The notes: generated from the letters alone by a model not told the origin. DNA of 64,000 nt from Candidatus Omnitrophota bacterium (GCA_022711115.1 JAKLFP010000005.1:72572-136571); one strand, 5' to 3'. Positions 10,157-52,654 are shown, numbered from the stretch's first letter. Program-made: numbers and translations.

Positions 10157-11596
10157 ATGAAAATCTGTTTCCTTGTCCCGCCGCCCCTAGATGGAAAACC
10201 AGCCGCGGAGCGTATTTTTGGCTGCAACTACGGGGTTTACAACCAGCCTAATATTTTTATGCTTTATGTGGCGACAGTCCTTCAAAAAGCCGGGCATGAA
10301 GTGCTGATCAAGGATTGTGTGATTGAGCATGCTTCTGTGAGTGCTTTTCAAAAATTCATCACTGAGAACTCTTCTGATATTTATTTTTTGGGAACGGTAT
10401 TTCTTTCCAAAACGACTGATTTAAAAGCCCGAGAAATGATCCGTCTCTTACAGCCGCATGCCAGATTTTGTTACTATTCCACAGAGCCGACAGCTCATCC
10501 GGAAGATTTTGCTGCGGAAGATACCGTGATCATCCGTGGAGAACCGGAAATGACCTCGCAAGAGGTTGTTGCCGCATTGGAAAAGAAAACGCTGCTGCAA
10601 GATATCCGCGGGATCGTATTTTCTTCCGGAGGGAAGTTGGTAGATACGGGATATCGTGAACCTCTCGAAAATTTGGACGTATTACCTTTTCCTGACCGCT
10701 CCCTTTTGCTAAAAAGAAATTACAATAATCCCAAATTATCGGTTTATCCTTTTACCACGATCCTTACTTCCCGGGGATGTCCGTATCGCTGCTATTACTG
10801 TGTCCCGAATTCGCTTTCTTTTTCCAGAGAGATCGATCTTAAAAAAAAGACTGGGGCTTTCCTGAAGCCTCGCTTTCGTTCCCGTTCGGTGGACAATGTG
10901 GTTCAGGAGGTCAGGATGTTGGCCCGCCAGGGTTATCGTTCTTTTTCCATTCTGGATGATCTGTTTGCTTTTGATAACCAGTGGACGATCGATTTTTGCC
11001 AGAAGATTCAAGATCTCAGGATGGAATGGTCCTGTCTTTCTCGTGCGGATCACATGACGGATCCCGCCATGGTTCAGGCGATGGGAAAGGCGGGTTGTAA
11101 ATTTGTGGCAATGGGGATCGAATCCTTCCACCAGGATATTTTGAAATTTGTCAGAAAGGATCTGGATCTCGGAACCGTACCAGTAGCGGTTCAAAATATG
11201 AAAAAAGCGGGTATTGAAGTTGTGATCAATGTGCTTTTTGCTTCCTGTGATTTAGAAACCGAAAAGACAATCCTTGAGACTTACCGCACTCTGAAACAAT
11301 TGGATCCGGATTATGTGCTTTTTTCCGCATGTACGCCGTTTCCCTATACGGAATTTAATCAAATCGCCAGGGAAAAAGGGTGGATGGTTGAGCCTGAATA
11401 CCGGCCTGTAGATCCGATGAAATCAGCCTTCATATCTTACTCGCATCTTTCCAAGGAGAGAATCGAAAAGCTATTGCGACGGGTTTATATCGGCTTTTAT
11501 TTCCGTCCAAGCTATCTCTGGAAGAAGCTTTGCAAGGTCAAAAGTCCGTTGGATTTTATCAATAAAATCAAAGCAGCTTTGAACATATTTCGCTAA
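10157..11596 (+). CDS. B12-binding domain radical SAM protein (class B rSAM)
   Basis: MKICFLVPP… B12-binding-like N-terminus. rSAM motif SRGCPYRCYYCVPN. The ATG directly abuts the stop of the GT2 gene (TAAATG). Confidence 0.85.
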   Translation: MKICFLVPPPLDGKPAAERIFGCNYGVYNQPNIFMLYVATVLQKAGHEVLIKDCVIEHASVSAFQKFITENSSDIYFLGTVFLSKTTDLKAREMIRLLQPHARFCYYSTEPTAHPEDFAAEDTVIIRGEPEMTSQEVVAALEKKTLLQDIRGIVFSSGGKLVDTGYREPLENLDVLPFPDRSLLLKRNYNNPKLSVYPFTTILTSRGCPYRCYYCVPNSLSFSREIDLKKKTGAFLKPRFRSRSVDNVVQEVRMLARQGYRSFSILDDLFAFDNQWTIDFCQKIQDLRMEWSCLSRADHMTDPAMVQAMGKAGCKFVAMGIESFHQDILKFVRKDLDLGTVPVAVQNMKKAGIEVVINVLFASCDLETEKTILETYRTLKQLDPDYVLFSACTPFPYTEFNQIAREKGWMVEPEYRPVDPMKSAFISYSHLSKERIEKLLRRVYIGFYFRPSYLWKKLCKVKSPLDFINKIKAALNIFR

Positions 11597-11612
11597 TGCG
11601 GTAAACCTTTTC

Positions 11613-12221
11613 ATGAAGCACGCTTCTTCGACCCAGGCAACCCGCTCTCAAGATTACACAGACTATCTTGCAAAGGATTCACAAATATGGTGGAAACGTC
11701 TGTTTCATGTTCAGGCACCTTATGCCTGGAATTTACGACGGCTTAAACCAGGTTTTACTTTAGAAATAGGCTGTGGGATTGGCCGCCAGTTGCTTTATCT
11801 TTACGGGAATGGAGTCGGTATTGACCACAACGCAGCGTCAGTTCAGGGCGCAAGAAAACAGGGGCTTCAAGCTTTTACTCCGGAACAATTTCAAGCTTCT
11901 TCTTTTAACAAACCTTGCAGTTTCGATTCTTTGCTCTTAGCTCATGTTGCAGAACATATGACAAAAGGCCAAGTGATCGATCTTTTGAGCCGGTACGTCG
12001 GCCTTTTAAGGTCTCACGGAAAATTAATCCTGATCACACCTCAGGAATTGGGTTTTCAGAAGGATCCCTCGCATGTGGAATTCATGGATTTGTTGAAAAT
12101 GCGGGAAATAGCGGAAACGCTTGGGTTTCAAATTGTTAAGCAATATTCTTTCCCATTTCCCAGAGTTTGCGGAAAGTTTTTTAGACATAATGAATTTGTC
12201 TCAGTCGGGATAAAAAAGTAG
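11613..12221 (+). CDS. Class I SAM-dependent methyltransferase
   Basis: Motif I LEIGCGIGRQL and Methyltransf_11/12-like spacing. Last gene of the +strand operon. Confidence 0.8.
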   Translation: MKHASSTQATRSQDYTDYLAKDSQIWWKRLFHVQAPYAWNLRRLKPGFTLEIGCGIGRQLLYLYGNGVGIDHNAASVQGARKQGLQAFTPEQFQASSFNKPCSFDSLLLAHVAEHMTKGQVIDLLSRYVGLLRSHGKLILITPQELGFQKDPSHVEFMDLLKMREIAETLGFQIVKQYSFPFPRVCGKFFRHNEFVSVGIKK

Positions 12222-12280
12222 ACAATATTCATTTTAAATCTTGTTGGAAATCGCGACGGTCAAATCACCCGACAAATTCT

Positions 12281-15200
12281 TTAAAGAGAGTTTTTTGAAT
12301 GGGTTTCTTCGGTGGCAAGTGAGTTTAAGATCTCAATGGCTTCGCGATGTTCTTTTTCGTGACGATGCGACTCAAAGCGGCTCACAAGACTGTAAAAGCA
12401 CGGCACAACAAACAGGGTTAACAATGTTGAAACAGCCGTACCCCAGATGATCACGGTCGCCATCGGTGCGCGTTGTTCAGCGCCTGGCCCCAGATTCATG
12501 ACTGCCGGCAGGGCGCTCGCGATGACCGCAAATGTTGTCATTAGAATCGGACGAAGGCGCAGCGGGCAAGCTTCAAGCAAAGCTTCGTTGACACCGAGAC
12601 CTTCCTCACGTCTTTGATTGGTAAAATCTACGAGGAGAATCGAATTTTTCTTTACGATTCCCATGAGTAACAAAAGACCGATGAAACTTAACATGTTGAG
12701 CGAATGGTTCATTAAAAAGAGTCCCAAAAATGCACCGGAAGCGGAGAAGGGGAGTGCTAAAAGAATTGTCAAGGGATGGAGAAAGGAATTGAACTGCGCT
12801 GCCAGGATCATATAGGCAATAAAGATCCCGAGGATCAACGCGAAAGAAAGCTGTTGGAAGGATTCTCGGAACCGTTCAGCACTTCCGGACATCACCAAAT
12901 GGTACTCTTTGGGGAATTCCTTTCGGGCAATTTTTTCAGCAAGTTCCAAGGCTGTTGCTTGTGATTTTCCACGAGCCACATTTCCGAACACATGCACAGC
13001 CCTCTCGCGGTTTTCGCGTGAGATCAGCATCGGTTCCGGAGTTTCAACCGTGTGTGTCACTTCCGAAAGGCGGACCATTTCACCCCGCTGATTGCGCACC
13101 CAAAGCAGATTGATATTTTCAAGCTTACGCCGGTTTTCATCCGTAAGACTAATCCGAACATCATAACGGCGATCGCCTTCCGTATACTTTGCGACTTTGA
13201 CACCACCCATGGCGACCTGGATGGTTGTTGCGATTGATTCTGTGGTAACCCCGCGTTCCGATGCCTTGACGCGGTCCGGGATGACATGCACTTCAGGAAT
13301 GTCGATGAGATAATCCGTGTCCATGTCCATGACCAATCCCGATTCTTGGAGACGCGATATGAGAAGGTTTGCCAGTTCACCCAGTTTTTTCCAATCAGGT
13401 CCCTTAATGGAAATGTCGATGGGGTAGTCTCTCGCCCCGGCAGCCGAGGCCGTTGAGAGGTCCTGGAGTGTCGCGCGCATGACCCCCGGGATTAGATTAA
13501 ACTCCTTGCGGCATATATCCATGAGATCTTTTTGTGACAGGCGGCGTCCTAGGATTTTATCCTTGGGACGGTCGTGAGGTTTTTTCAGGGTAACAAGCAA
13601 GATGCCGGCATTGACGTCACTTCCCGTGCCAGTTCCACCGGCGACCGCAAAATAGATTTCAACCTCGGGTCGTTTTGAAAGAAAGTCTTCTGCTTTTTTC
13701 AAGACCTCATCGGTTGCGGCCAAAGATGAGCCTGGTGGGGTTTGGATACGGACAAGAAAACGGCTGATGTCATGCACGGGGATGAACTCCTTGCGGATCA
13801 GGGGCATAAAAAAAAGCGAGGCTACAAAAAAAACGAGGGCGAAAGCCACCACTTTCCCGCGATGACGTAATGCTGCTGTGAGCGCGCTCGAATATAAAGA
13901 ACGCAAATGATTCATAATGTTATCTGCGACGCGTCCGACTCGTGTATCATGTCCAACTTTTAAGAATTGACTGCAACGAGAGGGTGTCAAGGTGACGGCT
14001 TCCAAGAGCGAAAAGGCAACGGCTGCGGAAACTGTGATGCCAAATTGAAAGAAAAATTTACCGATGAGGCCTTGCATGAATGCCGTTGGCAGGAAAATGG
14101 CGATGACTGCAAGCGAAATGACTGCGACGGCAAATATGATTTCCCTGGAGCCTACGATAGCTGCAAGGACGCGGGTTTTTCCCATTTCATAATGGCGCGC
14201 AATGTTTTCAAGCACCACAATCGCGTCGTCCACCACAATTCCAACCACCATCGAAAGTCCTAAGAGCGTTACATTATTGAGCGTAAATCCCATGAAATAC
14301 ATGACAATAAACGCGCCGCCCAAGGCCGTGGGAATTGCCAAAACGACGTTAATCGTTGAACTAATGGAACCTAGAAAAAACCAGCAAACGATACCCGTGA
14401 AAAGTATTGCCAAAATGATCGTCAATTCCAGTTCATGGACCGTTTCTTTGGTCTGTTCCGTACTGTCAAAATTGATCGTCAATCGGAGGTCTTTGGGTAA
14501 TTCGGCCGAGAGTTCTTTGACGCGTTTTTTGACGGCATTAGCTACTTCGACGGCATTGGTTCCGCGCTGTTTGCGGATGCCCAGCCCTACCGAAGTTTTT
14601 CCTAAGACGCGAGCCTTTCGTCGGACATCTTCAAGACCGTCTTCTACAATTGACACATCGCTTAAACGGAAGGTTTTCCAAAGATAGCCTTCCCTGACGC
14701 GGCTGGGGATTACCAATCTGCTCAGCTCCTCGACATTTTTAGTCTCTCCTAATACCCGGATATTCCGTTCTGTTTTTTCGGTGGTCAGACGGCCGGCAGG
14801 GAGTTCCGTATGCTGTGCTTGAATGGTGGCCATCACGTCTTCTGCGGTGAGGGACAGCGCTTCGAGCTTATGGGCGTCCAGCCAGACACGCATGCTTGGT
14901 TCGGCAAACCCTCCAAGAGTGATTTCTCCCACATTGGGAACTGTTGCGAATTGATCTTTAATATGATCCTTGATATATTCGACCAATTCGCGAAGGGAGC
15001 GATCTCCCGAAAGTCCCACCCAAATGATGGGCTGGTCATCGGGGTTGACTTTGGTAATGATCGGAGCATCCATATCCTCTGGCAGATTACGTTGTGCTTG
15101 CGCGATCTTCGTTTGAATTTCTTGGACGGCCACATCGATATCCTTGGACAGCTCAAATTCCGCAGTGATATTGGCACTGCCAAACCGGGAACTAGAAGTG

Positions 15201-40605: not shown

Positions 40606-40624
40606 GAGGCCATTGTTCTTTGAA

Positions 40625-40880
40625 GAATTAAATAACAGGCGTATCAGGGAAGCGAGCCCCGCAAGTATTTACGGGGACTCCACGGTGCCGCCGCTGTCGA
40701 CAGGGACGAAAGCGAAAATGCCACTGCCTTGTGAAAGGTGGGAAGGTTCGCGAGTAGGTTTGTACTTGTCTAGTCAGAATACCAGCCTGTGATCTCAACA
40801 TTCAAATTCCAAGTCCTCCGAGCAGAGGTAAAGCCAGGTGAACCCTTTCTTGCCCATGCCGAGGCGGAAAGGGTTTTTTT
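40625..40880 (+). ncRNA. Cobalamin (AdoCbl) riboswitch with intrinsic-terminator expression platform
   Basis: B12-box GCCACTG at 40720-40726. Upstream it has …CAGGGAAGCGAGCCCCGCAAG…GGTGCCGCCGCTGTCGACAGGGACGAAAGCGAAAATGCCACTGCC, typical of Cbl aptamers. Terminator hairpin CCCTTTC…GAAAGGG+TTTTTTT at 40843-40880, immediately before the TonB-dependent receptor start. The operon context (btuB/F/C/D, cobO) matches. Confidence 0.8.
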
Positions 40881-43172
40881 GTGTTCAAAGGTTTTAAATC
40901 CCGGAACGAGCGATTCCGGAAAATCGGCAATGTATTGTTCCTCTTGTGTTTCATTCAGTTGGGGTGGAGTTTCCCATTTTTTCATAAAGAAGAAAACAAA
41001 ACCTCTTCTGTCTCCAGCACACAAGATTCAAAATCAGCTTCGCAAACATCCGGCCCTGGCATTAGCACGGCGAAACAGAATATCGACAACCTAAAATCCG
41101 CGGATCTTTTATCTGTAGACGTTATTGCGTCCCGTCTTCCGAGTGTGACAGAAAACATCCAGGATATGCCGTCGAACGTGACCTTTAAAAGTGAGAAAGA
41201 ACTTCACGAAGCACACCCGCAAACCTTTCAAGATGCGGTGCGGGATATCGAAGGGGCTGTTTTTTATGATGAGGTCGGTAACGGTGTTGATTCAACATTT
41301 TCACTTAGGGGATTTAACAATTCAAGCGCCGTAGTTTTTCTGGTGGATGGTGTTCGTGTGAACGAAGTCGATAACAATGCGGTGAATTTTCCACTGATCC
41401 CGATGCGGGATGTACAATCTATTCAGATCGAGAGGGGTTCTTCCTCTGCTGTTTATGGAAGTAATGCCTTTGCCGGCGTGGTCAATATCACGACCGGTCA
41501 AGCAAGCCCCAAACCGATGCATCTTTTCGGTGGTTTGGAATGGACGAGTTTTCACGGTCTTCGTTTTAACCAAGGAGTCAGCGGGACGATCCAGGACAAG
41601 ATCACGCCTCTCGGCGGTCGTTTCACTTACTATTTCAATGGTGAACGTGATAACACGCAGGGATACCGGAATCATTCGGAGTTCCGCTTCACTTCATTTG
41701 ATATCAAAACGGCGTATGAACTTCCTGAGGGCCAGGGACGTTTTTATGTGAACATCAAGCACATGGTCGACGGAGATCATACTCCCGGAGAGATCACGCT
41801 GGAAAAATTTCAAAGTGGAGACCTTCGAAGCTGTAACAAGCCTTACGACGGCCGTAAATTTTTTAATACGATCGTCTCGCTGGGCGGAGACAAGCGTTTT
41901 TGGGATGACCGGATCCTTGCTTCGATCCTTTACAGCGATCGCATGAATAAACGGAACATTTATACGACTTACGGGACCTTTACTCCTTGGCTCTACCCCC
42001 AGTTTGATCCTTACACGTCATTTCTTAATATGAAAAGTCGCGATCGCGATTTAACATGGCAGCTAAAATATGACGATCAGTGGAAAGGGCTGGGAAATGA
42101 ATCGCTCTTAGGCATGGAGGTCCGCAACAGCCGTCAGACCTCCGCCGAACGGTACGCCTATCTGGGGAATATCCAGGAGTTTTTGCCTCCCACCACGGAC
42201 CACAGCGCCCGCTACAATAATGCCGCGATCTTCTGGCGCGAGACCTTGAAAATTTGCGACAAAATCATTCCTTTCTTCGGAATGCGGCATGATTTTAACT
42301 GGCTGCATACAGCGGATGCCATTACTCCGACGAATAACGTAAGCCAAAGATATGATAAATCCACTTTATCGACCGGAATGACGGTGAAGCCGTTTCAATG
42401 GGCTGATGTTTTCGGGAACTATTCCCAGGGTTTTCGGGTTCCGACCATGGACGAAACAACGCCGTATGCCGGGGCCAATCAAGTCAGTTTAAAACCGGAA
42501 AGTTCGGACAGCTACGAAGTCGGGATAAGGCTGCGCTATAAGGAAATGGCGGCCTACAAGTTCAGCTATTTTTTAATTGATGTGAATGATGAAATCCAAT
42601 GGGACAATTTGAGGAACCAATATTTCAATATCGCCCAGACGCGTCGATACGGTATTGAACAGCGCGTGGATTTTATGCCGATCCAGGAAATAAAACTTTA
42701 CGGCAGTTACACCTGGATGGCCGCATATGTTCTCAGCGGAGGAACAAGCAGTCTTGTTGAAGGCCGCGCGCTGGGACAGATCCCCGCGAACCGGTTTACT
42801 CTTGGAGTTACGTCCACGCCTTTGCGGCGATGGGGTTCTCCTTATGAGGGTTTCAGGATCGGGATGAACGGTGAGTTTACGGGCAGGCAACATCCATCCA
42901 ACTATGAGACATCCAGTCAAGCGGTTTTAGACACGACCGGAAAAGCAGGACACTGGATCCCGGGATATTCGGTTTGGAATTTCATCACGTCGTATAACTG
43001 GAAACAACAAGAGATTTATTTCAAGATCAACAACCTGTTTGGGGAAAAGTATTATTCACGATCCTATTCCGGGACCTCGTGGGGAAGTTCTCTTTACCCG
43101 GCAGGAACTTATACTTGGGTCAACCCGGGTTCCGGGCGGGAATTTGTCTTGGGAACCAAATGGGAATTCTAA
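40881..43172 (+). CDS. btuB: TonB-dependent outer-membrane receptor (cobalamin/BtuB-like)
   Basis: Plug domain (…VVFLVDGVRVNEVDNNAVNFPLIPMRDVQSIQIERGSSSAVYGSNAFAGVVNITT). 22-strand barrel. C-terminal …TKWEF with terminal aromatic. The GTG start is uncertain. Confidence 0.85.
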   Translation: MFKGFKSRNERFRKIGNVLFLLCFIQLGWSFPFFHKEENKTSSVSSTQDSKSASQTSGPGISTAKQNIDNLKSADLLSVDVIASRLPSVTENIQDMPSNVTFKSEKELHEAHPQTFQDAVRDIEGAVFYDEVGNGVDSTFSLRGFNNSSAVVFLVDGVRVNEVDNNAVNFPLIPMRDVQSIQIERGSSSAVYGSNAFAGVVNITTGQASPKPMHLFGGLEWTSFHGLRFNQGVSGTIQDKITPLGGRFTYYFNGERDNTQGYRNHSEFRFTSFDIKTAYELPEGQGRFYVNIKHMVDGDHTPGEITLEKFQSGDLRSCNKPYDGRKFFNTIVSLGGDKRFWDDRILASILYSDRMNKRNIYTTYGTFTPWLYPQFDPYTSFLNMKSRDRDLTWQLKYDDQWKGLGNESLLGMEVRNSRQTSAERYAYLGNIQEFLPPTTDHSARYNNAAIFWRETLKICDKIIPFFGMRHDFNWLHTADAITPTNNVSQRYDKSTLSTGMTVKPFQWADVFGNYSQGFRVPTMDETTPYAGANQVSLKPESSDSYEVGIRLRYKEMAAYKFSYFLIDVNDEIQWDNLRNQYFNIAQTRRYGIEQRVDFMPIQEIKLYGSYTWMAAYVLSGGTSSLVEGRALGQIPANRFTLGVTSTPLRRWGSPYEGFRIGMNGEFTGRQHPSNYETSSQAVLDTTGKAGHWIPGYSVWNFITSYNWKQQEIYFKINNLFGEKYYSRSYSGTSWGSSLYPAGTYTWVNPGSGREFVLGTKWEF

Positions 43173-43194: not shown

Positions 43195-43674
43195 ATGCGG
43201 AAACACGTAATTTTTCTAGTAATTTTGTTTTTATTTTGCGCTTCCAGGGCTTCGGCGGGGGAGAATTTTATTCTGGATCCTTCCACAGGATTTGGAGTCC
43301 AGCAGGATGCGGAGGGACCGAATTTTCGCGCGAGAACGGATTTTTCTTCAAAAGAAAAAACAAGTTTTGGAGATACTTTTGAGGCTTCGAAAGAAACCGT
43401 TCCTCCTTATGTGGTCGCGATGCCGAAAAACATCCGATATCCTTCCTGGGCCAGGCGCGAAGGTTTTCAGGGGAAGTTGGTGGTTGCGATAGAAATTCTT
43501 GAGGATGGAAATGTCGGAAAGTGGCGCATTGCGCGATCAACGGGGAATGAAAAACTTGATCAGAGCACGGTAGAATCCATTTTAACCTGGAAATTCCAGC
43601 CGGCTATGAAACAAGGCAGACCTATTAGGACCTTTATCGAAGTCCCCGTCAATTTCGAGCTGATCCGGAACTGA
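43195..43674 (+). CDS. tonB: Energy transducer TonB
   Basis: Signal anchor MRKHVIFLVILFLFCASRASA. C-terminal TonB domain (YPSWARREGFQGKLVVAIEILEDGNVGKWRIARSTGNEKLDQSTVESILTWKFQPAMKQGRP). The track ORF starts earlier, inside btuB. Confidence 0.8.
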   Translation: MRKHVIFLVILFLFCASRASAGENFILDPSTGFGVQQDAEGPNFRARTDFSSKEKTSFGDTFEASKETVPPYVVAMPKNIRYPSWARREGFQGKLVVAIEILEDGNVGKWRIARSTGNEKLDQSTVESILTWKFQPAMKQGRPIRTFIEVPVNFELIRN

Positions 43675-43678
43675 TCTT

Positions 43679-44545
43679 ATGCTGCTAAAAAACACCTTGA
43701 TGATAGTCCTGTTTTTTTTGATGACGCCCAATGCTTTTGCAGCAGATTCTATAACTGCCAAAATTCAAACAAAGCCCGGAACTAGTCCTCAGCGGATTGT
43801 TTCTGTCAATTTGTGTACCGACGAACTTTTGCTGCGTCTCGTTTCTCCGGAACGAGCGGCCGCAGTGACCAAACACAGCGCCAATTCTTCGATCTCGACC
43901 GTTGCTGAGCAAACGACAACAATCAAAAAGATCCAGGGAACTGTTGAAGATGTGATGTCCTGTAAAGCCGATCTTTTGATCGGCGGCAAATTCAGCAACA
44001 AACAAACGCTCCACTTTTTTCAATATTCAGAAATCCCTGTGCTTATCTTTGGGGTGCCTAAGAATTTCGAAGATATTTACGCAGATATCCAGAAATTGGC
44101 AAAAGCTGTCGGCGAGTCCGAAAAAGGAGAGCAGATCATCAAGGGGATGGAAGAGGATCTTTTAAAGATTCGGAGGGATATAAAATCAAAGACGCCAAAG
44201 CGCGCGGTATTTTTTCAGAGCGGGAATTATGTGCCGGGTTCCGGTACTTTTGAAAATGCGATCATGGAAGCAGCCGGGCTTGAGAACATCGCTGTGCCGC
44301 TTGGTATCAAGGAATATGGCAATTTGCCTCTGGAAAAACTCATTGAAGCAAAACCCGATGTGATGATTTTTGCGGGGGATCAAAAACGCGGTACTACGGT
44401 GAGAGGGGAAGTGCTTTCGCATCCTGCCATGAACCAAGCGCTTCCCGATTTAAAGGTTGTGGAAATCCCATCTTCCATGCTGAATTGCGGATCGCCTGCT
44501 TCCATCGAAGCGGTCCGTATTCTTGTCCGAGAAACCAGCGTATGA
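43679..44545 (+). CDS. btuF: ABC transporter periplasmic substrate-binding protein, cobalamin/siderophore class (BtuF-like)
   Basis: Signal peptide. IVSVNLCTDELLLRL motif. Class III SBP fold. Confidence 0.82.
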   Translation: MLLKNTLMIVLFFLMTPNAFAADSITAKIQTKPGTSPQRIVSVNLCTDELLLRLVSPERAAAVTKHSANSSISTVAEQTTTIKKIQGTVEDVMSCKADLLIGGKFSNKQTLHFFQYSEIPVLIFGVPKNFEDIYADIQKLAKAVGESEKGEQIIKGMEEDLLKIRRDIKSKTPKRAVFFQSGNYVPGSGTFENAIMEAAGLENIAVPLGIKEYGNLPLEKLIEAKPDVMIFAGDQKRGTTVRGEVLSHPAMNQALPDLKVVEIPSSMLNCGSPASIEAVRILVRETSV

Positions 44546-45570
44546 GACACCCTAAAAGTGATAGCCAATCACGAGGTCTTATTAAAGAAATGTCTCCATG
44601 GCTTCTTCATGGATCTCTTTGGATAGGGTTAGTCACTGCTTTTTTGATTTCCATCGATGTCGGCAATATCAAGATATCCTTTTTAGAAATGCTTTTTCAA
44701 CCAGCTCACTCGGACGCCTCTGTGGTATTTTGGGATATTCGGTTACCTAGGGCGCTTCTTGGATTGCTTGTAGGTGCGACGTTAGGTCTCTCGGGTGCTG
44801 CGATGCAGGGTTTTCTCCGGAATCCTTTGGCTGAACCTGGGGTTTTAGGTGTGACAGGCGGCGCTGCACTTGGCGCGGTGCTTGTATTTTACACGGGAAT
44901 CTTTTCAGTTTTTTCTATGGCTTTGCCGTTGGGTGGTATCTTCGGAGCATTTCTTTCTGTCCTTTTTCTCTATCTCCTAGCAGGGAGCATGAGCAGCGTT
45001 CAGACATTAATACTTGCGGGAGTTTCCATGAATGTCATTGCTTTTTCCGGAACATCGCTTGCGCTCAACCTGTCTAAAGATCCGTATGCGGTGCTTGATA
45101 TCGTGTTTTGGCAGATGGGTTCTCTCGCAGATCGGAGTTTCCACCATGTTTTCCTGATTTTACCTTTTATTCTAATCGGATGGGTGTTGCTTCTGTGGGA
45201 TCGACGCGCCTTGGATGCCTTAAGTCTAGGCGAAGAAGCAGCGGCCAGTCTTGGCATTAATCTGAAAAAAATGCAATTGCGGATGATTATTGGAACGGCA
45301 TTTTGTGTAGGTGCAGCGGTTTCAGTCTGCGGCAGTATCGGATTTGTAGGACTTGTGGTGCCCCATCTTTTAAGGCCTTTGGTGGCGAATCAACCCGGGA
45401 AACTTCTTGTTGTAAGCGCCTTGGGTGGAGCGATCCTGTTGCTTTTATCGGATATTGCCGTGCGGCTGATTCCTGTAGCGGTAGAACTTAAGCTCGGAGT
45501 CCTGACATCCCTTGTCGGAGCGCCCTTTTTTATGATACTTATTTTACAAATGAGGCGGAAACTTTTATGA
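44542..45570 (+). CDS. btuC: FecCD-family ABC permease (BtuC-like)
   Basis: About 9-10 TM helices; ...LALNLSKDPY…; ATGA overlap with btuF. The track ORF starts upstream at 44485. Confidence 0.85.
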   Translation: MRHPKSDSQSRGLIKEMSPWLLHGSLWIGLVTAFLISIDVGNIKISFLEMLFQPAHSDASVVFWDIRLPRALLGLLVGATLGLSGAAMQGFLRNPLAEPGVLGVTGGAALGAVLVFYTGIFSVFSMALPLGGIFGAFLSVLFLYLLAGSMSSVQTLILAGVSMNVIAFSGTSLALNLSKDPYAVLDIVFWQMGSLADRSFHHVFLILPFILIGWVLLLWDRRALDALSLGEEAAASLGINLKKMQLRMIIGTAFCVGAAVSVCGSIGFVGLVVPHLLRPLVANQPGKLLVVSALGGAILLLLSDIAVRLIPVAVELKLGVLTSLVGAPFFMILILQMRRKLL

Positions 45571-46325
45571 AATGGATCGAAGCGAATCAGATCAGCATTT
45601 CATTGGATGGGTTTCCGATCCTGGAGAATGTGGATCTTGATCTTGAAAAGGGTGAAATGCTTGGTCTGATCGGACCGAACGGAGCCGGAAAAACAACTCT
45701 TCTTAGAATCTTGGCCAGACTTCTTGAGCCGGATACAGGTTCCGTATTTATGGGTGATCACATCCGAGCTGAAGATTTTTCAAAAAAAGTTTCCTACCTC
45801 GCTCAATCTCAGGAGATCCATTGGCCGATCAGTGTTCGAAGACTGGTTTCGCTAGGGCGTATCCCGCATCTTATGCCTTGGCAGCAACTCGGTCCGGAAG
45901 ATGAAGAAGCGATTGAGCAGGCTATGAAGGTGACGGATGTTTTTCATTTAGGGGATCGTTCCGTGGATCATTTAGCAGGTGGCGAAAAGCGTCTCGTGCT
46001 TTTAGCTCGGGCACTGGCAACCCGGCCGTCCATTATCCTGGCGGACGAACCGGTTCAGGGGCTTGATCCGGCGCATGGGCTTCAGGTGATGGAACTTTTG
46101 AAACAGTTTACTGCTTCGGGATGTGGGGTGATTGCAGTCCTTCATGACCTTACGCTGGCTGCGCGTTTTTGTCATCGAATCATGCTTCTTGACCATGGCA
46201 AGGTTTTGGCCGTAGGCCGTCCCAACGAAGTTCTTACAGCGGAAAATCTTCGGAAGAGTTATCATGTGGAAGCAAAATACGGAACTACGGACGGGTTTTA
46301 TGTAATACCTTGGAGAAAGTTATGA
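45567..46325 (+). CDS. btuD: ABC transporter ATP-binding protein (BtuD/FecE-like)
   Basis: Walker A GPNGAGKTT, signature LAGGEKRLVLLARAL, Walker B ILADEP. ATGA overlap with btuC. Confidence 0.88.
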   Translation: MKWIEANQISISLDGFPILENVDLDLEKGEMLGLIGPNGAGKTTLLRILARLLEPDTGSVFMGDHIRAEDFSKKVSYLAQSQEIHWPISVRRLVSLGRIPHLMPWQQLGPEDEEAIEQAMKVTDVFHLGDRSVDHLAGGEKRLVLLARALATRPSIILADEPVQGLDPAHGLQVMELLKQFTASGCGVIAVLHDLTLAARFCHRIMLLDHGKVLAVGRPNEVLTAENLRKSYHVEAKYGTTDGFYVIPWRKL

Positions 46326-46846
46326 AGAAACAAAAAAATAAAGGACTTATTATTGTTTTTACAGGCAACGGCAAAGGAAAAACAACGGCTGCGTTGGGTG
46401 TGGCCATGCGCATGATCGGGCATGGGAAAAAAGTTGTGATGGTGCAGTTTCTGAAATCAGGGAGCGGCGAATCCCAGGCGGCTAAGAAATTCGGGAGTGC
46501 TTTTAAAATCTGGAGCTTGGGAAAGGGATTTACATGGCAGCATTCTCCGGCAGAAAATAAAAAGATAGTGCGAGAGGCATGGCGCAAATGTCGTGAAATC
46601 CTAAAGGACCCTCGCTATGCTTTGGCCATTTTTGATGAAATTAACTATTGTATGGAATATAAACTGCTTGATCCTCAAAAAGTAATACAAGAACTCCGGA
46701 AAAAAACCAATGCCAAACACGTGATCCTTACGGGCAACGGTTTGCCGGGAGAGATTTTAGATGTGGCGGATCTTGTTACCGAGATGAAATGCATCCGTCA
46801 TCCTTTCCAGAATTCCCTTCCGGCTCAAGCGGGCATTGAATTCTAA
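46322..46846 (+). CDS. cobO: Cob(I)yrinic acid a,c-diamide / cob(I)alamin adenosyltransferase (CobO/BtuR family)
   Basis: KGLIIVFTGNGKGKTTAALGVAMRMIGHGKKVVMVQFLK P-loop that is characteristic of CobA/CobO. ATGA overlap with btuD. Confidence 0.85.
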   Translation: MKKQKNKGLIIVFTGNGKGKTTAALGVAMRMIGHGKKVVMVQFLKSGSGESQAAKKFGSAFKIWSLGKGFTWQHSPAENKKIVREAWRKCREILKDPRYALAIFDEINYCMEYKLLDPQKVIQELRKKTNAKHVILTGNGLPGEILDVADLVTEMKCIRHPFQNSLPAQAGIEF

Positions 46847-46892
46847 AACCATTTCTAGTAGTCCGATCAAAGTTGGAGTATAATCCATCTCT

Positions 46893-48977
46893 ATGTCAAT
46901 TCAGGAAAATCCCAATCAGGTCTATTCTTGTCTCTGTGCGGAAGCTTCAAGGGAAGCCCAAGGCGCAAGCCCTGTCTCCGGTCATCGGTATAAGCATTTT
47001 CATCTCTACTTGATTAAACCCTCCAAATACGATGATGACGGGTACGTGATCCGGTATTGGAAAGGCGTTCTTCCAAGCAATACCCTCAGCTGTCTTAATG
47101 GGTTGAGTGAGGATGTGCGGGAACGGGGTATTCTTGGTAAGGATCTGCAATGGAAAACGGAGTTGATTGACGACACGGTTCAGAAAATTCCTTACCAGCG
47201 CATTATTCGAGACAGTCGTTGTACGGATACGAAAACCGTTGTTTGTCTCGTGGGTGTTCAGACAAACCAATTTGTGCGCGCTTCCGATCTGGCTTTAAAA
47301 TTTCGTAAGGCCGGTGTTACGGTTATGATCGGCGGCTTTCATATCAGTGGGATTATGTCAACGCTTCCTGATTTATCGCCGGAATTGGTAATACTCCGGA
47401 ATGCGGGCGTGACGTTAGTGGCTGGGGAAGGCGAAGGCGGTCACTGGGAAAAAATTCTTATTGATGCCTTCCACGGCAAACTTTTACCCGTTTATAATTT
47501 TCTGAATGACCTGCCGGATCTTTCTAGGGCCGCTTTTCCGAAGATTAACCCCCAACTTCAAAACAATTATGCCCTGAAGCATTTCGGAACTTTGGATTGC
47601 GGCAGGGGATGCCCGTTTGGGTGCAGTTTTTGCACGGTCATTAATGTGCAGGGTAGACGCATGCGTTTTCGTGATGTGGATTCTTTGATCCAGAAAATCA
47701 GGGACGATTACCGTCAGCACGATGTTTCTCATTATTTTTTTACGGATGATAATTTTTGCCGTAACAAAAATTGGGAAATCATCCTGGATCGCATCATCGA
47801 GCTTCGTGAAAAAGAAAAAATCCCGTTCCATTTCATGATGCAATTGGATACGCAATCCCACCTCGTTCCTAATTTTCTGGAAAAATCTGCTAAAGCAGGT
47901 TGCCGGCAGGTTTTTATCGGAATGGAAAGCTTAAATCAGGAAAATCTCAAGGCTGCCAAGAAGAATCAAAATGACATTGCTAATTTTAAAGCGCTTGTGG
48001 ATGCCTTTCATGATGTTGGGATTGTTTGCCATTTGGCCTACATCATCGGCTTTCCCTTAGACACCAAAGAATCGGTTAAAAAAGATATTGAAATGCTGAT
48101 GTCCCTTGGAGCCGAACAAACCTCTTTTTTTATGATGACGCCTTTGCCAGGTTCTATGGATTATAAACAAGCTGTGGCAAAAGGGCAGATTATGGATGCG
48201 GATCTTAATAATTATGACACCTTCCATGAGACGCACCGTCATGCTCGAATGAAACCGGGGGAGTGGCAGGAAGCCTATGAGGCCGCCTGGAAGAGTTTTT
48301 ATAGTATTGAAAATATGAAGAATATTTTACGGCAGCCGATGCCCTTTGAAAACTACTGGGGAGTGATCACTAATTTTATATGGTATAAAAATAGCATCGA
48401 GGTGGAAGGCGGGCATCCTATGATTCATGGTTTTGTTCGTCTTAAAGGACGTTTGGAACGGCGTCCTGATTATCCCGTGGAAAATCGATGGCAGTATTGC
48501 AAGCGTCGTTTTTATGACATTCTCGGAGAAATCAAAGGCTGGTGGAAGTTAACTTTGGAAATTGAAGAAGTTTGGCTTGCGACGCGTCGCCGTGGCCCGC
48601 TTGAGGCACGCGTGGTTGCGGAACTGGCGCGTCTGACACAGTCTGCTCGGGAATGGCGTGATCTTCGGTGTTCGGAAATCCATCATCTCTACCAAAAGGC
48701 CGCGATCGCTTTGGAGAAAAAAGGCCTTTATCGTTTGCGCATTCCGTCACGTTTTCAGATCTGGCTGCACAAATGGAACTTTATTACGGATCCGCTCTCA
48801 GCGACGCGAAAACCTTTCGAACGGTTCTGGAGAAAGGTCTATATTGCCTTTCGAAGGAGAGAGTTTTTGCGTATCAACTACTTTCGGATTTTTTGGGTAG
48901 GCTTTGAAGAGTTCATTTTATTTTGCAGGTTTTTTATTTCCATTGTGATTACAGGCCTTTTTATCCATAAACACTGA
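46893..48977 (+). CDS. B12-binding domain radical SAM protein (large, 694 aa; DUF4070-type C-terminus likely)
   Basis: N-terminal B12-binding-like region (…HFHLYLIKPSKYDDDGYVIRYW…VCLVGVQTNQF…VMIGGFHIS). rSAM motif LDCGRGCPFGCSFCTV. Long C-terminal extension. Confidence 0.82.
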   Translation: MSIQENPNQVYSCLCAEASREAQGASPVSGHRYKHFHLYLIKPSKYDDDGYVIRYWKGVLPSNTLSCLNGLSEDVRERGILGKDLQWKTELIDDTVQKIPYQRIIRDSRCTDTKTVVCLVGVQTNQFVRASDLALKFRKAGVTVMIGGFHISGIMSTLPDLSPELVILRNAGVTLVAGEGEGGHWEKILIDAFHGKLLPVYNFLNDLPDLSRAAFPKINPQLQNNYALKHFGTLDCGRGCPFGCSFCTVINVQGRRMRFRDVDSLIQKIRDDYRQHDVSHYFFTDDNFCRNKNWEIILDRIIELREKEKIPFHFMMQLDTQSHLVPNFLEKSAKAGCRQVFIGMESLNQENLKAAKKNQNDIANFKALVDAFHDVGIVCHLAYIIGFPLDTKESVKKDIEMLMSLGAEQTSFFMMTPLPGSMDYKQAVAKGQIMDADLNNYDTFHETHRHARMKPGEWQEAYEAAWKSFYSIENMKNILRQPMPFENYWGVITNFIWYKNSIEVEGGHPMIHGFVRLKGRLERRPDYPVENRWQYCKRRFYDILGEIKGWWKLTLEIEEVWLATRRRGPLEARVVAELARLTQSAREWRDLRCSEIHHLYQKAAIALEKKGLYRLRIPSRFQIWLHKWNFITDPLSATRKPFERFWRKVYIAFRRREFLRINYFRIFWVGFEEFILFCRFFISIVITGLFIHKH

Positions 48978-49021
48978 AAAATTCAAAAAACGATCCTTCA
49001 AAACAAGAAAGCCAAAACATC

Positions 49022-50662
49022 TTGAAAGTTTATTTGATTAACCCGCGTTTTGCGCCCACGATATGGTCTTTCGAAGGTCTGCAGCCGCTGACCGGGACTC
49101 GTTTTTCCACAACTCCGTTGGGCCTTGCCACGGTGGCCGCTCTTACGCCCCCTTCCTGGGACGTGGAAATTGCCGACGAGAATGTTGAAGACATTAATTT
49201 TGAGACGACGGCAGATTTGATTGGAATCAGCGCCTTCAATGTTCAATATCACCGGGCGCTTGAGATTATCGCGGAATTCAAGAAACGAGGAAAGAAGATT
49301 GCGGTGGGTGGGCCCTACAACAGCCTCTTTCCGGAGGCGTTCGAGGGGAAATGTGATTATCGGATTGTGGGAGAAGCTGAGGAGATTTGGCCGGAATTCC
49401 TTCGTGATTTTGAGTTTGGAACTCCGCGGGAGCTTTATAAAGCCAATGGCAAGGTGGATATCCGCAAAAGCCCTGTGCCGCGTTATGACCTTATTCGGGG
49501 AGAACGCTACAACATGTTTTCACTTCAAACAAGCCGCGGATGCCCGTTTAACTGCGAATTTTGCGACATTATCATCATGGATGGCCGCGTCCCGCGTACT
49601 AAGACGATTCCTCAAGTGCTTGCCGAAGTGGATCATTGCGTCAAACAGGGGGCTCATTATATTGTTTTTGGTGATGCAAATTTCATCGGCAATATTCCAT
49701 TCGCGCGAGAACTTCTTAAGGCGCTGGCAGATTACTCAAAAAAGAACAACTACCCGATAGAATTCTCCTGTGAATTAACTATCAATGTGGCGCATCACCC
49801 GGATCTTTTGGAATTGCTCCAGGCCGCGAATTTTTATTCGGTATTTGTTGGGATCGAAACACCGCGCCGTGAAAGTCTCGTGGAATCAGGGAAGATTCAA
49901 AATACGCGTGAAAATATTCTCGAGGATGTTAAGCGCATTCATGCCTATCATATTACGGTGGTGGCTGGAATGATCGTGGGTTTCGATGCGGATGATAAAA
50001 GAATATTCAAAGAACACTACGATTTTCTTCAAGAACTCGGGATTCCTTTCACGACTTGCGGGACGCTTATGGCGCTTCCGAATACGCCGTTGATCAAGAG
50101 GCTTGAAAAAGAAGGGCGTCTCTTGGATCTGGCATGGACGGAAATGAACGGACATGGTTCTTCGGACTGCAATTTTATTCCAAAGAACATGACGCTCGAA
50201 GAACTTCATCAGGGGTACAACTGGCTGAGTCGATGTCTTTATCGCTACGACAGTTACGGAGACCGTTTGGTGACGGCTCTCAACCGCTTCCGAAATCTTA
50301 ATCCCGAACACAAACGAGCGTCTCTGGATTTAAAATTTTCTTATCTTTTGATAAAACTACTAGGTTATTATCTTCTGACTTTCGATTTAGCACGCATGAA
50401 GTTTTTTACAGGGACTTTTTGGCGTGTTGCGAAGGGGGGGCCGTTTTCCGTGAGCAAATGGCTGGAGTTCTTTCGTTGGATTGCGACCCACCGAGCTTTT
50501 CGCCAATACATCATCGAAACTCAGGGCATTCCCGAAGGGCAGGACCCGAATCATCCGCCTTTTGCTGTTGCTGAGGACTTTCTGAAAAGTGATGATTTCA
50601 AAGAGAAGATTTTTCACCCCGAAGAAGTAGAATCAAAATCGGTTTCAACAGCAACTCTCTAA
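49022..50662 (+). CDS. B12-binding domain radical SAM protein (546 aa)
   Basis: (TTG)MKVYLINPRF… is typical of class B rSAM N-termini (…ADLIGISAFNVQYHRALEIIAEFKKRGKKIAVGGP). rSAM motif SRGCPFNCEFCDII. Its stop overlaps the psd ATG by 1 nt (TAATG). Confidence 0.82.
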   Translation: MKVYLINPRFAPTIWSFEGLQPLTGTRFSTTPLGLATVAALTPPSWDVEIADENVEDINFETTADLIGISAFNVQYHRALEIIAEFKKRGKKIAVGGPYNSLFPEAFEGKCDYRIVGEAEEIWPEFLRDFEFGTPRELYKANGKVDIRKSPVPRYDLIRGERYNMFSLQTSRGCPFNCEFCDIIIMDGRVPRTKTIPQVLAEVDHCVKQGAHYIVFGDANFIGNIPFARELLKALADYSKKNNYPIEFSCELTINVAHHPDLLELLQAANFYSVFVGIETPRRESLVESGKIQNTRENILEDVKRIHAYHITVVAGMIVGFDADDKRIFKEHYDFLQELGIPFTTCGTLMALPNTPLIKRLEKEGRLLDLAWTEMNGHGSSDCNFIPKNMTLEELHQGYNWLSRCLYRYDSYGDRLVTALNRFRNLNPEHKRASLDLKFSYLLIKLLGYYLLTFDLARMKFFTGTFWRVAKGGPFSVSKWLEFFRWIATHRAFRQYIIETQGIPEGQDPNHPPFAVAEDFLKSDDFKEKIFHPEEVESKSVSTATL

Positions 50663-51306
50663 TGAATAAAATCCCTCTCGATAAACGAGTTTGGCCAGGG
50701 GTTGTTTTGCTCGGTCTTCTCATGATCGTGCAATTATTTCTGGCTATTCCGTTTGCGACGCCTATCCTTATGGTTCTTTTTTTTGCACATCTCCTTTTTT
50801 TTCGGGACCTGGAGCCGCAAGCCTTGCATGAAGAGGGGCTGCTTTCACCGGCAGATGGCAAGGTAGTGGAGATCAGCGAGATCTTTGAAGATAAATTTCT
50901 TCATGAGCAGGCAGTGCGTATCCGTATTTTCCTTTCGATTTTTAATGTTCACGTAACGCGTTCACCGTTTTCGGGCATTGTGAAATACCAGCAGTATGTC
51001 CGGGGGAAGTTTTTGAATGCTCTCCGGAAGATGTCCTTTGAACATAATGAGTCGAATTGGATCGGCATTGAAAATCATGAAAGGCGAGTCTTGATACGTC
51101 AAATGTCAGGTGCTATTGCACGGCGGATTTATTCCGATGTGGTGGTAGGCCAAGTTGTTGGTCGCGGAGAGAAGCTCGGCATGATTTGTTATGGCTCGGG
51201 GGTAGAAATGTTTGTGGCAAAAAGGTTTTTTGAACCGAGCATCCAAGTAGGGCAACATGTGTCAGTCGGTGCGACCCTTCTTGGCCAATGGATTCGTGAA
51301 GCATAA
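50662..51306 (+). CDS. psd: Phosphatidylserine decarboxylase proenzyme (archaeal-type/short form)
   Basis: FLSIFNVHVTRSPFSGIV and self-cleavage G-S motif (MICYGSGVEMFV). 214 aa. Confidence 0.85.
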   Translation: MNKIPLDKRVWPGVVLLGLLMIVQLFLAIPFATPILMVLFFAHLLFFRDLEPQALHEEGLLSPADGKVVEISEIFEDKFLHEQAVRIRIFLSIFNVHVTRSPFSGIVKYQQYVRGKFLNALRKMSFEHNESNWIGIENHERRVLIRQMSGAIARRIYSDVVVGQVVGRGEKLGMICYGSGVEMFVAKRFFEPSIQVGQHVSVGATLLGQWIREA

Positions 51307-51310
51307 AGCC

Positions 51311-52048
51311 ATGAAAAACCGTTTTTATTTCACAGCAGCAGCATTTCCGAATATGATCACCATGCTCAATCTTATCGCCGGTTTTTTCTCCGTGATCATG
51401 AGTATTCAAGAAAGATACGAGTATGCGGTCTGGCTTGTATTTTTGGCATTGGTGTTGGATTCCCTGGACGGGCATGTGGCACGAATTTTTGGTAATGAAA
51501 CGGAATTCGGACGCGAATTGGATTCTTTGGCCGATACGGTTTCTTTTGTAGTCGCGCCTTGTATTTTTGTCACGAAGGCATTGTTCGGGAATGCTTCTCT
51601 GGTGGTATTGCTAGTGGTTATTGTTTATCTTTGCGCGGGTGTTTTTCGTTTAGCACGTTTTAACGTCAATCCGACTTGTACTGGATGTTTTGAAGGGCTT
51701 CCGACACCCGCTGCAGCACTGACGCTGATGATGACCATGCTGGCTTTTCGAGAGAACCATTGGGTGGAGCATTCTTTTTCGCTTGTCAGTGTGGTGTTTC
51801 TCATGACGGCGCTAGGGTTTCTTATGGTGAGCGATATCCCTTACCCCAAGGTATCAGCGATCAAATTCCGCACTTGGCGGACACTTTTTTTTGTTCAAGT
51901 GGTAGTGTTTGGAACGATTTTTTATCTTTTAAATCTAGAGAGTGCTATTGCAACAATTTTTCTGACGTTTCTTGTTCTTTCTCCTTTTTATTGTGCCCCC
52001 CTAGGAGCAAGCTTTTCATCTGAGGATCAAGAAGGAGATGATGCCTAA
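51311..52048 (+). CDS. pssA: CDP-diacylglycerol--serine O-phosphatidyltransferase (CDP-alcohol phosphatidyltransferase family)
   Basis: DSLDGHVARIFGNETEFGRELDSLADTVSF matches DG(x)2AR(x)8G(x)3D(x)3D. Start at the internal Met just after the psd stop; the track ORF begins at 51257. Confidence 0.85.
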   Translation: MKNRFYFTAAAFPNMITMLNLIAGFFSVIMSIQERYEYAVWLVFLALVLDSLDGHVARIFGNETEFGRELDSLADTVSFVVAPCIFVTKALFGNASLVVLLVVIVYLCAGVFRLARFNVNPTCTGCFEGLPTPAAALTLMMTMLAFRENHWVEHSFSLVSVVFLMTALGFLMVSDIPYPKVSAIKFRTWRTLFFVQVVVFGTIFYLLNLESAIATIFLTFLVLSPFYCAPLGASFSSEDQEGDDA

Positions 52049-52654
52049 ATGTTGCTGGGAGTCTTAACCGGTTTTCTGGGCTCGGCATTAAGCTGGCAGA
52101 TTAATCTGATTGCTATCCAGCGTGGTTTGCAGCGGGGACGAGTGGCGGCATTTCTGGTTGGTTGCGGTGCCGTGACGGCAGATATGATTTTCCTCTGGGT
52201 CGCTTTCACCGGAGCGAAACCCCTTCTCAATCATCCGGAATGGTGGCGAAATATTCGGTGGCTGGGGATTGCAGTGCTGCTCTTTTTGGCAGCCAGACTT
52301 TTAGTGAGGCATGGTCGCCCGCGTAGGCAGGATGAAGAGGTCAATAAACGAAATCCGAGCAAAAATTTCCTTGTAGGATTTCTTGTGGTGGGCACTAATC
52401 CTGCCGTGTTGCTTATATGGGCAGGGGTGATCAGCTTTTTGCTTTCTCAGTTTCCTGAAGCGCGGCAACCTTTTTTTAAGGAATTTTTTCTTTCCGGTTT
52501 TTTAATCGGAGCTTTGGGTTGGTTTTTCCCACTCACTTTTGTTTTTCTTGAAAAGTTGGAGGGATGGAGCAAGAAGAATCATGAATTGCTTTCAAGGGTT
52601 TCTGCATCTGCGCTTATCTTGGTTGCGTTTTATCTCATGTTCCAAAAATGCTAG
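52049..52654 (+). CDS. LysE/RhtB-family translocator
   Basis: Six TM helices (LysE-type layout); N-terminus MLLGVLTGFLGSALS…. ATG immediately follows the pssA stop. Confidence 0.7.
   Translation: MLLGVLTGFLGSALSWQINLIAIQRGLQRGRVAAFLVGCGAVTADMIFLWVAFTGAKPLLNHPEWWRNIRWLGIAVLLFLAARLLVRHGRPRRQDEEVNKRNPSKNFLVGFLVVGTNPAVLLIWAGVISFLLSQFPEARQPFFKEFFLSGFLIGALGWFFPLTFVFLEKLEGWSKKNHELLSRVSASALILVAFYLMFQKC

Follow-up and report, generated by a model that had tools for sequence, protein, structure and literature searches.

What brings two radical S-adenosylmethionine (SAM) enzymes into an apparent expression unit with genes for phosphatidylethanolamine (PE) synthesis, directly downstream of a vitamin B12 (cobalamin) import operon? 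The question is raised by a 64,000-nucleotide (nt) stretch of DNA from a Candidatus Omnitrophota bacterium (GCA_022711115.1 JAKLFP010000005.1:72572-136571), here called the window and analysed at its full length. In this stretch, the genes for two radical SAM proteins, which we denote rSAM1 and rSAM2, are followed on the same strand by those for phosphatidylserine (PS) decarboxylase (psd), CDP-diacylglycerol--serine O-phosphatidyltransferase (pssA) and a LysE-type translocator (lysE), and an earlier note on this DNA, made from the sequence alone, proposed that the arrangement joins B12-dependent radical chemistry to the synthesis of membrane lipids. The riboswitch-btu operon and psd-pssA are ordinary in themselves, and the two radical SAM proteins, although uncharacterised, belong to a known superfamily.

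The explanation that we favour, with about even confidence, is that the locus arose in one clade by the fusion of three blocks, each mobile on its own, in a compact and strongly co-directional Omnitrophota genome. The first block would be a riboswitch-controlled B12 salvage operon (btuB-tonB-btuFCD-cobO), the second an autonomous class-B-type (cobalamin-dependent) pair, rSAM1 and rSAM2, probably with a conserved promoter of its own, and the third a housekeeping PE trio, psd-pssA-lysE, that would have come to sit behind the pair in one subclade. The trio would be co-transcribed with the pair and translationally coupled to rSAM2, and the co-expression of the pair and the PE genes would then reflect shared transcription rather than a shared pathway. 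A common lipid-modifying pathway is possible, and we regard the locus as a reasonable experimental lead, not as evidence of a new pathway.

The unit and its close relatives

The features on which the argument turns are the following, with scores in bits against the respective model thresholds where these apply.

46855..46884, + strand: promoter-like motif CTAGTAGTC-N15-TATAAT, 8 nt before the rSAM1 ATG, found once in the window
46893..48977, + strand: rSAM1, a 694-residue radical SAM enzyme with a predicted Rossmann-like N-terminal domain, a CxxxCxxC motif, a helical C-terminal domain and a hydrophobic end helix
49022..50662, + strand: rSAM2, a 546-residue enzyme with B12-binding, radical SAM and DUF4070 domains ('HpnP-like' architecture) and a TTG start
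50662..51306, + strand: psd, short-type PS decarboxylase (Pfam PS_Dcarbxylase PF02666, 112.8 vs 22)
51311..52048, + strand: pssA, CDP-diacylglycerol--serine O-phosphatidyltransferase (TIGR00473, 127.5 vs 107; Pfam CDP-OH_P_transf)
52049..52654, + strand: LysE-type translocator, the last gene of the putative unit (Pfam LysE, 81.2), followed by a 203-nt AT-rich gap

The gene order described in the earlier note, riboswitch-btuB-tonB-btuF-btuC-btuD-cobO-rSAM1-rSAM2-psd-pssA-lysE, is present as given, all on the + strand, and the sizes of 694 and 546 amino acids claimed for the two radical SAM proteins match the open reading frames (ORFs) at 46893-48977 and 49022-50662. Its reading of the junctions is accurate as well. 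At the rSAM2/psd junction, TAATG, the A at 50662 is both the final base of the rSAM2 stop codon (TAA, 50660-50662) and the first base of the psd ATG (50662-50664). The pssA ATG, at 51311, comes after a psd stop codon whose final base is 51306, and the lysE ATG (52049) directly follows the pssA stop codon (final base 52048), so that the four gaps from rSAM1 to lysE are 44, -1, 4 and 0 nt. Stop/start overlaps between rSAM2 and psd, either TAATG or ATGA, recur in relatives.

Such packing is the norm in this genome, as is co-directionality. From 25518 to 59968, the window carries an uninterrupted run of 28 co-directional + strand genes with at least eight unrelated functions, which include a DisA-type diadenylate cyclase, glpK-glpD, tatD, thiF, an OEP-HlyD-MacB (MacAB-type) efflux system, an MFS_3 transporter, the btu genes, the rSAM1-lysE unit and a glycogen block (DUF4912, GH57 branching enzyme, an amylase-like gene and glycogen phosphorylase). 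Among the window ORFs, roughly one same-strand neighbour pair in two overlaps or is separated by at most 4 nt, a count that is somewhat inflated by longest-ORF start calls, and unrelated genes abut too, as do glpD and tatD (0-nt gap).

Alignment of the 60 nt upstream of rSAM1 in six sequences (window; L001, copy at 6866-6895; L091; L092; L094; L095; L and P numbers are our handles for loci and proteins) yields the consensus CTAGYRGTC-N15-TAYAAT-N8-ATG in fixed register, irrespective of whether the upstream gene is cobO, an amine oxidase or another gene. The motif is probably the pair's own promoter, its function being judged from conservation and position, and the rSAM1 start would then be probably leaderless or near-leaderless. 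With a promoter-like motif of its own, the rSAM unit would be uncoupled from the riboswitch; read-through from the riboswitch-led btu operon into it may occur. The gaps, the overlaps and the motif provide good support for a single transcription/translation unit from rSAM1 to lysE in this lineage, and the pair's own motif sets the B12 block apart.

Consensus scans of the window for promoters and terminators mapped no transcript boundary, with counts no better than in shuffled sequence (15 promoter-like sites vs 15.7 expected; 21 terminator-like sites vs 15.3 expected). A promoter-like match at 50645-50672 was considered as a psd promoter and discarded because its -10 element falls inside psd. 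The spacer between rSAM1 and rSAM2, 44 nt in the window, is about 130 nt in L001 (8995-9124), L093 (10351-10480) and L094 (12092-12216), where it holds repeated GTACTTAG-like words and could be a structured or inserted element.

The history of the arrangement can be read from its relatives. The window's rSAM1 is 100% identical to P0121, a protein of an Omnitrophota metagenome-assembled genome (NCBI), and the paired type, delimited by rSAM1 identity of at least 61%, comprises eleven distinct loci. The rSAM2 gene directly follows rSAM1 in all eleven. Behind the pair, psd-pssA(-lysE) is found in nine (a few of these contigs end inside psd or pssA), all with rSAM1 at least 65% identical and all belonging to one subclade. 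In the other two loci, L090 and L097 (rSAM1 identity 61-62%), the pair lies between a permease gene and ilvD, and in L097 psd-pssA-lysE forms a separate block, 6.8 kb upstream of the pair. Wherever the contigs of the nine-locus subclade continue, DUF4912-GH57 is found downstream, and the two loci of greatest length also include amylase and glycogen phosphorylase; because the subclade also keeps these lipid-unrelated glycogen genes, retention of the rSAM2-psd junction is not separable from general synteny.

The upstream side is variable. The gene before the pair is cobO in three of the eleven loci (window, L094, L176), a flavin amine oxidase in L001/L093, L091 and L092, a permease in L090 and L097, and other genes in L095/L178 and L177; in eight loci, the pair is not beside btu genes. 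Taken together, the comparisons suggest that the three blocks (B12 import, rSAM pair and psd-pssA-lysE) move independently and that one ancestral arrangement is the source of the rSAM2-psd junction. The argument that cofactor supply from the same locus reinforces the lipid link is weak, given that no more than three loci of eleven have the B12 operon immediately before the pair and that the pair's motif separates the two: the nearby operon is weak evidence for a lipid role and fair, if circumstantial, evidence that the enzymes use B12.

Three local peculiarities of these loci are recorded here. The amine-oxidase or phytoene-desaturase-type gene (PF01593; L093 6717-8150) is preceded by a gene for a chagasin-type peptidase inhibitor. 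In L177 (1-8849), an ORF of more than 4334 residues that runs off the end of the locus lies directly upstream of the pair. The rSAM2 gene is split into two ORFs in L095 (3817-5426) and intact in L178 of the same clade (11116-12726), which could be an assembly error or a pseudogene.

Distant homologues and protein families

To extend the survey beyond the paired type, genome contigs were scanned with rSAM2 and metagenome contigs with rSAM1, each scan yielding 80 loci, and the flanking ORFs were clustered and subjected to two Pfam censuses. Neither psd nor pssA nor any other phospholipid gene was found in the neighbour censuses of 73 distant rSAM1 and 79 rSAM2 homologues. Recurrent association with phospholipid genes, the lack of which the earlier note had named among the results that would refute its proposal, is absent from the distant homologues, a result that goes largely against the proposal.

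The 73 rSAM1 homologues (45-59% identity), some of them from Acidobacteriota of the Acidoferrales type, stand alone. The top Pfam families beside them are TilS, aldo/keto reductase, 4HBT thioesterase and Crp, and the recurrent neighbours of these paralogues are tilS-hpt-ftsH, the aldo/keto reductase and the 4HBT thioesterase. In L144 (2121-5659) and about 16 further loci of the L098-L170 set, from Acidobacteriota in peat and soil metagenomes, an rSAM1-family gene is directly upstream of tilS-hpt-ftsH. In a close relative, the overlapping contigs L175 and L176 of two runs place the B12 uptake genes of the btu operon between two rSAM1-family genes: the paired copy P0132 comes after the operon, and the homologue P0240, which shares 54% identity with the rSAM1 of the window, is on the opposite side, divergent and about 2 kb from btuB (L175 10001-11986, L176 1-81).

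The 79 rSAM2 homologues come from many phyla and showed no recurrent neighbour in the Pfam census; those at 57-71% identity are in unrelated gene contexts, and the plasmid homologues (37-40% identical) are mostly orphan genes. Two of the individual contexts are elaborate. The rSAM2 homologue P0119 (57% identical) belongs to a cluster with LPG_synthase_C, LuxC, a hexapeptide transferase, LuxE and a LuxD-like acyltransferase. Another homologue (64%; L081 1070-10665) is accompanied by a P450, a hydrolase, KASIII fused to a haem-oxygenase-like domain, a methyltransferase resembling cyclopropane fatty acid (CFA) synthase and two more DUF4070 radical SAM genes.

Both proteins of the window possess the cluster-binding CxxxCxxC motif, C240/C244/C247 in rSAM1 (invariant in 26 sequences) and C174/C178/C181 in rSAM2 (also invariant), and the PF04055 core, and are members of the radical SAM superfamily. 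In rSAM2, PF02310 (44.2 bits; gathering score 32.1), PF04055 (68 bits) and PF13282 (44.3 bits) are all detected, and the TTG start is backed by the MKVYLINPRF consensus of the homologues. Radical_SAM PF04055 (63.1 bits) is the only Pfam domain detected in rSAM1, with no Pfam B12-binding match; weak, sub-threshold NCBIfam alignments extend into residues 109-230, and the predicted fold of the N-terminal domain is Rossmann-like. The description of both enzymes as class B is supported for rSAM2 by its Pfam B12-binding domain and for rSAM1 depends on these weak alignments and the predicted fold.

The AlphaFold2 (AF2) models (mean predicted local distance difference test score, pLDDT, 79 for rSAM1 and 84 for rSAM2) both show the class-B fold, in which a Rossmann domain at the N-terminus precedes a radical SAM barrel, and match class-B structures in Foldseek searches with E-values of 1e-9 to 1e-18 at 14-20% identity. 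For rSAM1, AprD4 is the top match in the PDB, and TsrM, MgmA, CysS, OxsB and TokK are also among the best; for rSAM2, it is again AprD4, with TsrM, CysS, MgmA, OxsB and TokK also among the matches. AprD4 is not known to use cobalamin, and for this reason the use of B12 by rSAM1 is an inference. The fold searches point to a generic class-B fold for both proteins and do not discriminate between functions, and sequence searches of the PDB produced only generic, weak class-B matches (best E-values 1e-10 and 3e-10). For neither enzyme did Tes/GDGT-MAS appear in the PDB sequence matches (E<=0.01) or among the 50 best Foldseek matches listed.

Membership in a characterised family was considered and rejected for both enzymes, as all NCBIfam scores (HpnJ, PhpK, BchE, TIGR04072, BzaD, HpnR and others) are far below the cut-offs. 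The best model for rSAM1 is HpnJ TIGR03471 (85.4 vs 577.6 bits; rSAM2, 37.5), and that for rSAM2 is TIGR04072, the ladderane-type lipid-biosynthesis B12/radical SAM family (71.3 vs 360; rSAM1, 68.5); HpnR TIGR04367 gives 42 and 31 bits (cut-off 650) and BzaD TIGR04385 gives 44.8 and 22.9 bits (cut-off 450) for rSAM1 and rSAM2, respectively. In the profile search that the earlier note had suggested, then, no characterised non-lipid family was matched and no NCBIfam model reached its cut-off.

A search of 1.84 billion representatives places the C-terminal domain of rSAM1, about 220 residues long and helical, in no more than 150 clusters (50% identity), and the family that it defines is small and common to Omnitrophota and Acidobacteriota. 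The tail (residues 666-694) has a Kyte-Doolittle hydrophobicity of 2.17. A transmembrane-like (TM-like) tail was considered as a correlate of psd synteny and rejected, because the correspondence is imperfect (0.88 in the syntenic L095, 1.78 in the non-syntenic L097), and tail hydrophobicity is accordingly not used as evidence here. Both proteins are well conserved in Omnitrophota, rSAM2 at 59-90% identity within the phylum.

Shared transcription or a shared pathway

Probably, rSAM1 and rSAM2 act successively on one substrate, and the chemistry would involve a SAM-derived 5'-deoxyadenosyl radical with cobalamin as the methyl carrier. An unactivated carbon would thereby be C-methylated, which among class-B reactions is the most common. 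A substrate that is hydrophobic or membrane-associated is the likeliest kind, although we give it somewhat less than an even chance, and consider it unlikely that the pair acts specifically on PS or PE supplied by the downstream genes.

Several observations weigh against the fusion of independent blocks as a sufficient account. The rSAM2/psd overlap has been kept although the psd genes of the relatives are only 62-69% identical, a persistence beyond what neutral chance would strictly require, and the upstream flank has been rearranged several times whereas the rSAM2-psd junction has not. The solo rSAM1 homologues (at most 59% identity) are paralogues of the paired type; their psd-free contexts thus say little about that type, and the negative census is weakened. 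Lipid-related genes, moreover, do occur sporadically near homologues: LuxC/LuxE/LPG_synthase_C, KASIII with a CFA-synthase-like methyltransferase, GDSL lipases, a fatty-acid desaturase, a 4HBT thioesterase and a lipid A acyltransferase. Finally, the C-terminal hydrophobic helix of rSAM1 is TM-like in most, not all, of the subclade, and rSAM2 has the three-domain architecture of the hopanoid C-2 methylase HpnP.

Much of this is also what would be expected of a lipid-tailoring operon, in which rSAM1 and rSAM2 modify the phospholipids made by PssA and Psd with B12-dependent radical chemistry, for example by mid-chain C-methylation, tail-to-tail C-C coupling of acyl or alkyl chains, or head-group C-methylation, and co-translation would let modification keep pace with PE synthesis. 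This alternative, a serious rival that we hold to be possible and clearly short of probable, gains from the TAATG/ATGA coupling of rSAM2 to psd conserved in relatives, from the single conserved promoter-like motif ahead of the whole unit, from the rSAM1 helix, from the HpnP-like B12+rSAM+DUF4070 architecture of rSAM2 and from the sporadic lipid genes beside homologues; neither protein is claimed by a competing characterised family, and B12-binding lipid modifiers are known (GrsA/B, Gmm and HpnP/R; PMC11214058, PMC13459092). However, the adjacency to psd is the property of one subclade and one evolutionary event, is lost in L090 and L097, and is accompanied in the same subclade by the unrelated glycogen genes; no lipid family recurs in the two unbiased neighbour censuses; the lipid models TIGR04072, HpnJ and HpnR score far below their cut-offs (68-71, 85 and 31-42 bits, respectively); there is no similarity to Tes/GDGT-MAS; and the hydrophobicity of the rSAM1 tail does not follow psd synteny. 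What stands of the lipid-modification hypothesis is the co-expression unit in this lineage, while the functional link goes back to a single inherited arrangement in one subclade.

The pair might instead belong with the B12 block, perhaps as methylases of the BzaD/BzaE kind, by which the lower ligand of salvaged corrinoids would be remodelled. Anaerobic benzimidazole (bza) operons encode two B12-radical SAM methylases under riboswitch control, and in the window, L094 and L176 two B12-type radical SAM genes come straight after a riboswitch-led btu-cobO operon, with an rSAM1 paralogue on its other side in L175. Yet the BzaD scores are not only far below the cut-off but below those of several unrelated families, bzaA/B, bzaC and cobT are missing from the locus, the pair is away from btu genes in eight loci of eleven, and it has a promoter-like motif of its own, so that we consider a corrinoid role very improbable. 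A non-lipid substrate, such as a protein or a ribosomally synthesized and post-translationally modified peptide (RiPP), RNA or a natural product, with the position of the pair in the locus purely incidental, seems to us unlikely, if less remote. The nearest fold matches include enzymes acting on peptides or proteins (MgmA), tryptophan (TsrM), carrier-bound small molecules (CysS, TokK), nucleosides (OxsB) and aminoglycosides (AprD4), rSAM1 paralogues of Acidobacteriota lie upstream of tilS-hpt-ftsH, and one rSAM2 homologue is part of a P450/KASIII/methyltransferase cluster of natural-product-like appearance; but identity to every solved enzyme is at most 20%, none of the eleven loci has a precursor peptide, SPASM, TRAM or carrier-protein gene beside the pair, and the conservation of rSAM2 across the phylum suits a core cellular role over a niche natural product.

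The fusion of three independently mobile blocks remains the reading that we prefer. As matters stand, the chief value of the analysis is as a warning that, in genomes that are compact and co-directional, a tight overlap by itself counts for little as evidence of a shared pathway. The leads that emerge are a conserved two-gene radical SAM module, a promoter-like motif with a probably leaderless start and the small rSAM1 family defined by its C-terminal domain. That the pair is dedicated to phospholipid tailoring, introducing methyl branches, C-C cross-links or serine/ethanolamine head-group C-methylation into the products of PssA and Psd, is in our estimate improbable. If it were so, modified membrane lipids of bacteria would be reached by a new, B12-dependent route, and the rSAM1 paralogues in peat Acidobacteriota (Acidoferrales) could become candidates for steps not yet assigned, the extra methylations in branched tetraether lipids among them. 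To our knowledge, several lipid methylation and cross-linking steps still lack assigned enzymes. Should the coupling be functional, the locus would offer two candidate enzymes for B12-dependent phospholipid modification in an uncultured phylum, a testable gene pair for lipid geochemists.

The flanking blocks and known systems

The B12 import block upstream of the pair consists of the following features.

40620..40804, + strand: cobalamin riboswitch aptamer (Rfam RF00174, 53.7 bits vs gathering score 31.5, full-length model match)
40881..43172, + strand: btuB-like TonB-dependent outer-membrane receptor (ORF; the L176 orthologue has Plug and TonB_dep_Rec_b-barrel)
43195..43674, + strand: tonB-like gene (TonB_C, PF03544; called on the identical contig L171 and mapped to the window)
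43679..44545, + strand: btuF-like periplasmic binding protein (PF01497 Peripla_BP_2)
44542..45570, + strand: btuC-like permease (PF01032 FecCD)
45567..46325, + strand: btuD-like ABC ATPase (PF00005 ABC_tran)
46322..46846, + strand: cobO/btuR ATP:corrinoid adenosyltransferase (Pfam CobA_CobO_BtuR, 195.9 bits; TIGR00708, 182.8 vs cut-off 167.75)

The Rfam scan found only this cobalamin riboswitch in the window. In L176 (5129-6747), two extra genes, encoding an Asn_synthase-like and a Diphthami_syn_2 PP-loop protein, are inserted in the btu operon between tonB and btuF; neither is present in the window.

In the PE block, psd is assigned at the family level only, because its best NCBIfam equivalog, NF003678, scores below the cut-off (180.9 vs 225 bits). 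The CDP-alcohol phosphatidyltransferase motif DSLDGHVARIFGNETEFGRELDSLAD is visible in the pssA translation, and homologues extend over a length consistent with the start at 51311. The psd-pssA-lysE trio (window 50662-52654; L097 2520-4525) is intact even with the radical SAM pair elsewhere, so that a LysE-family exporter stays beside the PE synthesis genes.

Compared with known cobalamin-riboswitch btuBFCD-cobO salvage operons, the B12 block is a textbook case with nothing unusual within it; it adjoins the radical SAM pair in only three of the eleven related loci. With the class-B structures TsrM, TokK, CysS, MgmA/QCMT, OxsB and AprD4, the two enzymes have in common the N-terminal Rossmann domain, the radical SAM barrel and CxxxCxxC, whereas the C-terminal domains differ, that of rSAM1 being the rare helical domain described above.

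The earlier note knew of no described pathway in which B12-dependent radical SAM enzymes are joined to psd and pssA, and our literature search agrees: no paper in the library searched connects a B12 radical SAM enzyme with phosphatidylserine decarboxylase or psd/pssA (review PMC13459092), and the papers found to mention Omnitrophota lipids report only counts of Mss/ElbD homologues. Among lipid-modifying radical SAM enzymes, GDGT-MAS, HpnJ and TIGR04072, compared by sequence, model or fold, are not detectably close relatives of rSAM1 or rSAM2. A close likeness is that to HpnP, the cobalamin-dependent hopanoid C-2 methylase that acts on a membrane lipid: rSAM2 has the same three Pfam domains in the same order, a domain set that makes it 'HpnP-like', not HpnP proper. 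No hpn or shc (squalene-hopene cyclase) genes are among the annotated genes of the window, and the function of HpnP-like clades outside the hopanoid C-2 methylase clade is unknown (Hoshino et al. 2023, PMC10697835). More generally, the lipid-modifying radical SAM enzymes (Tes/GDGT-MAS, Mss, GrsA/B, Gmm, HpnJ and TIGR04072) act on inert lipid chains (PMC13459092), and several of them bind B12 and are encoded beside lipid genes, which is the type of role that has been proposed for the pair described here.

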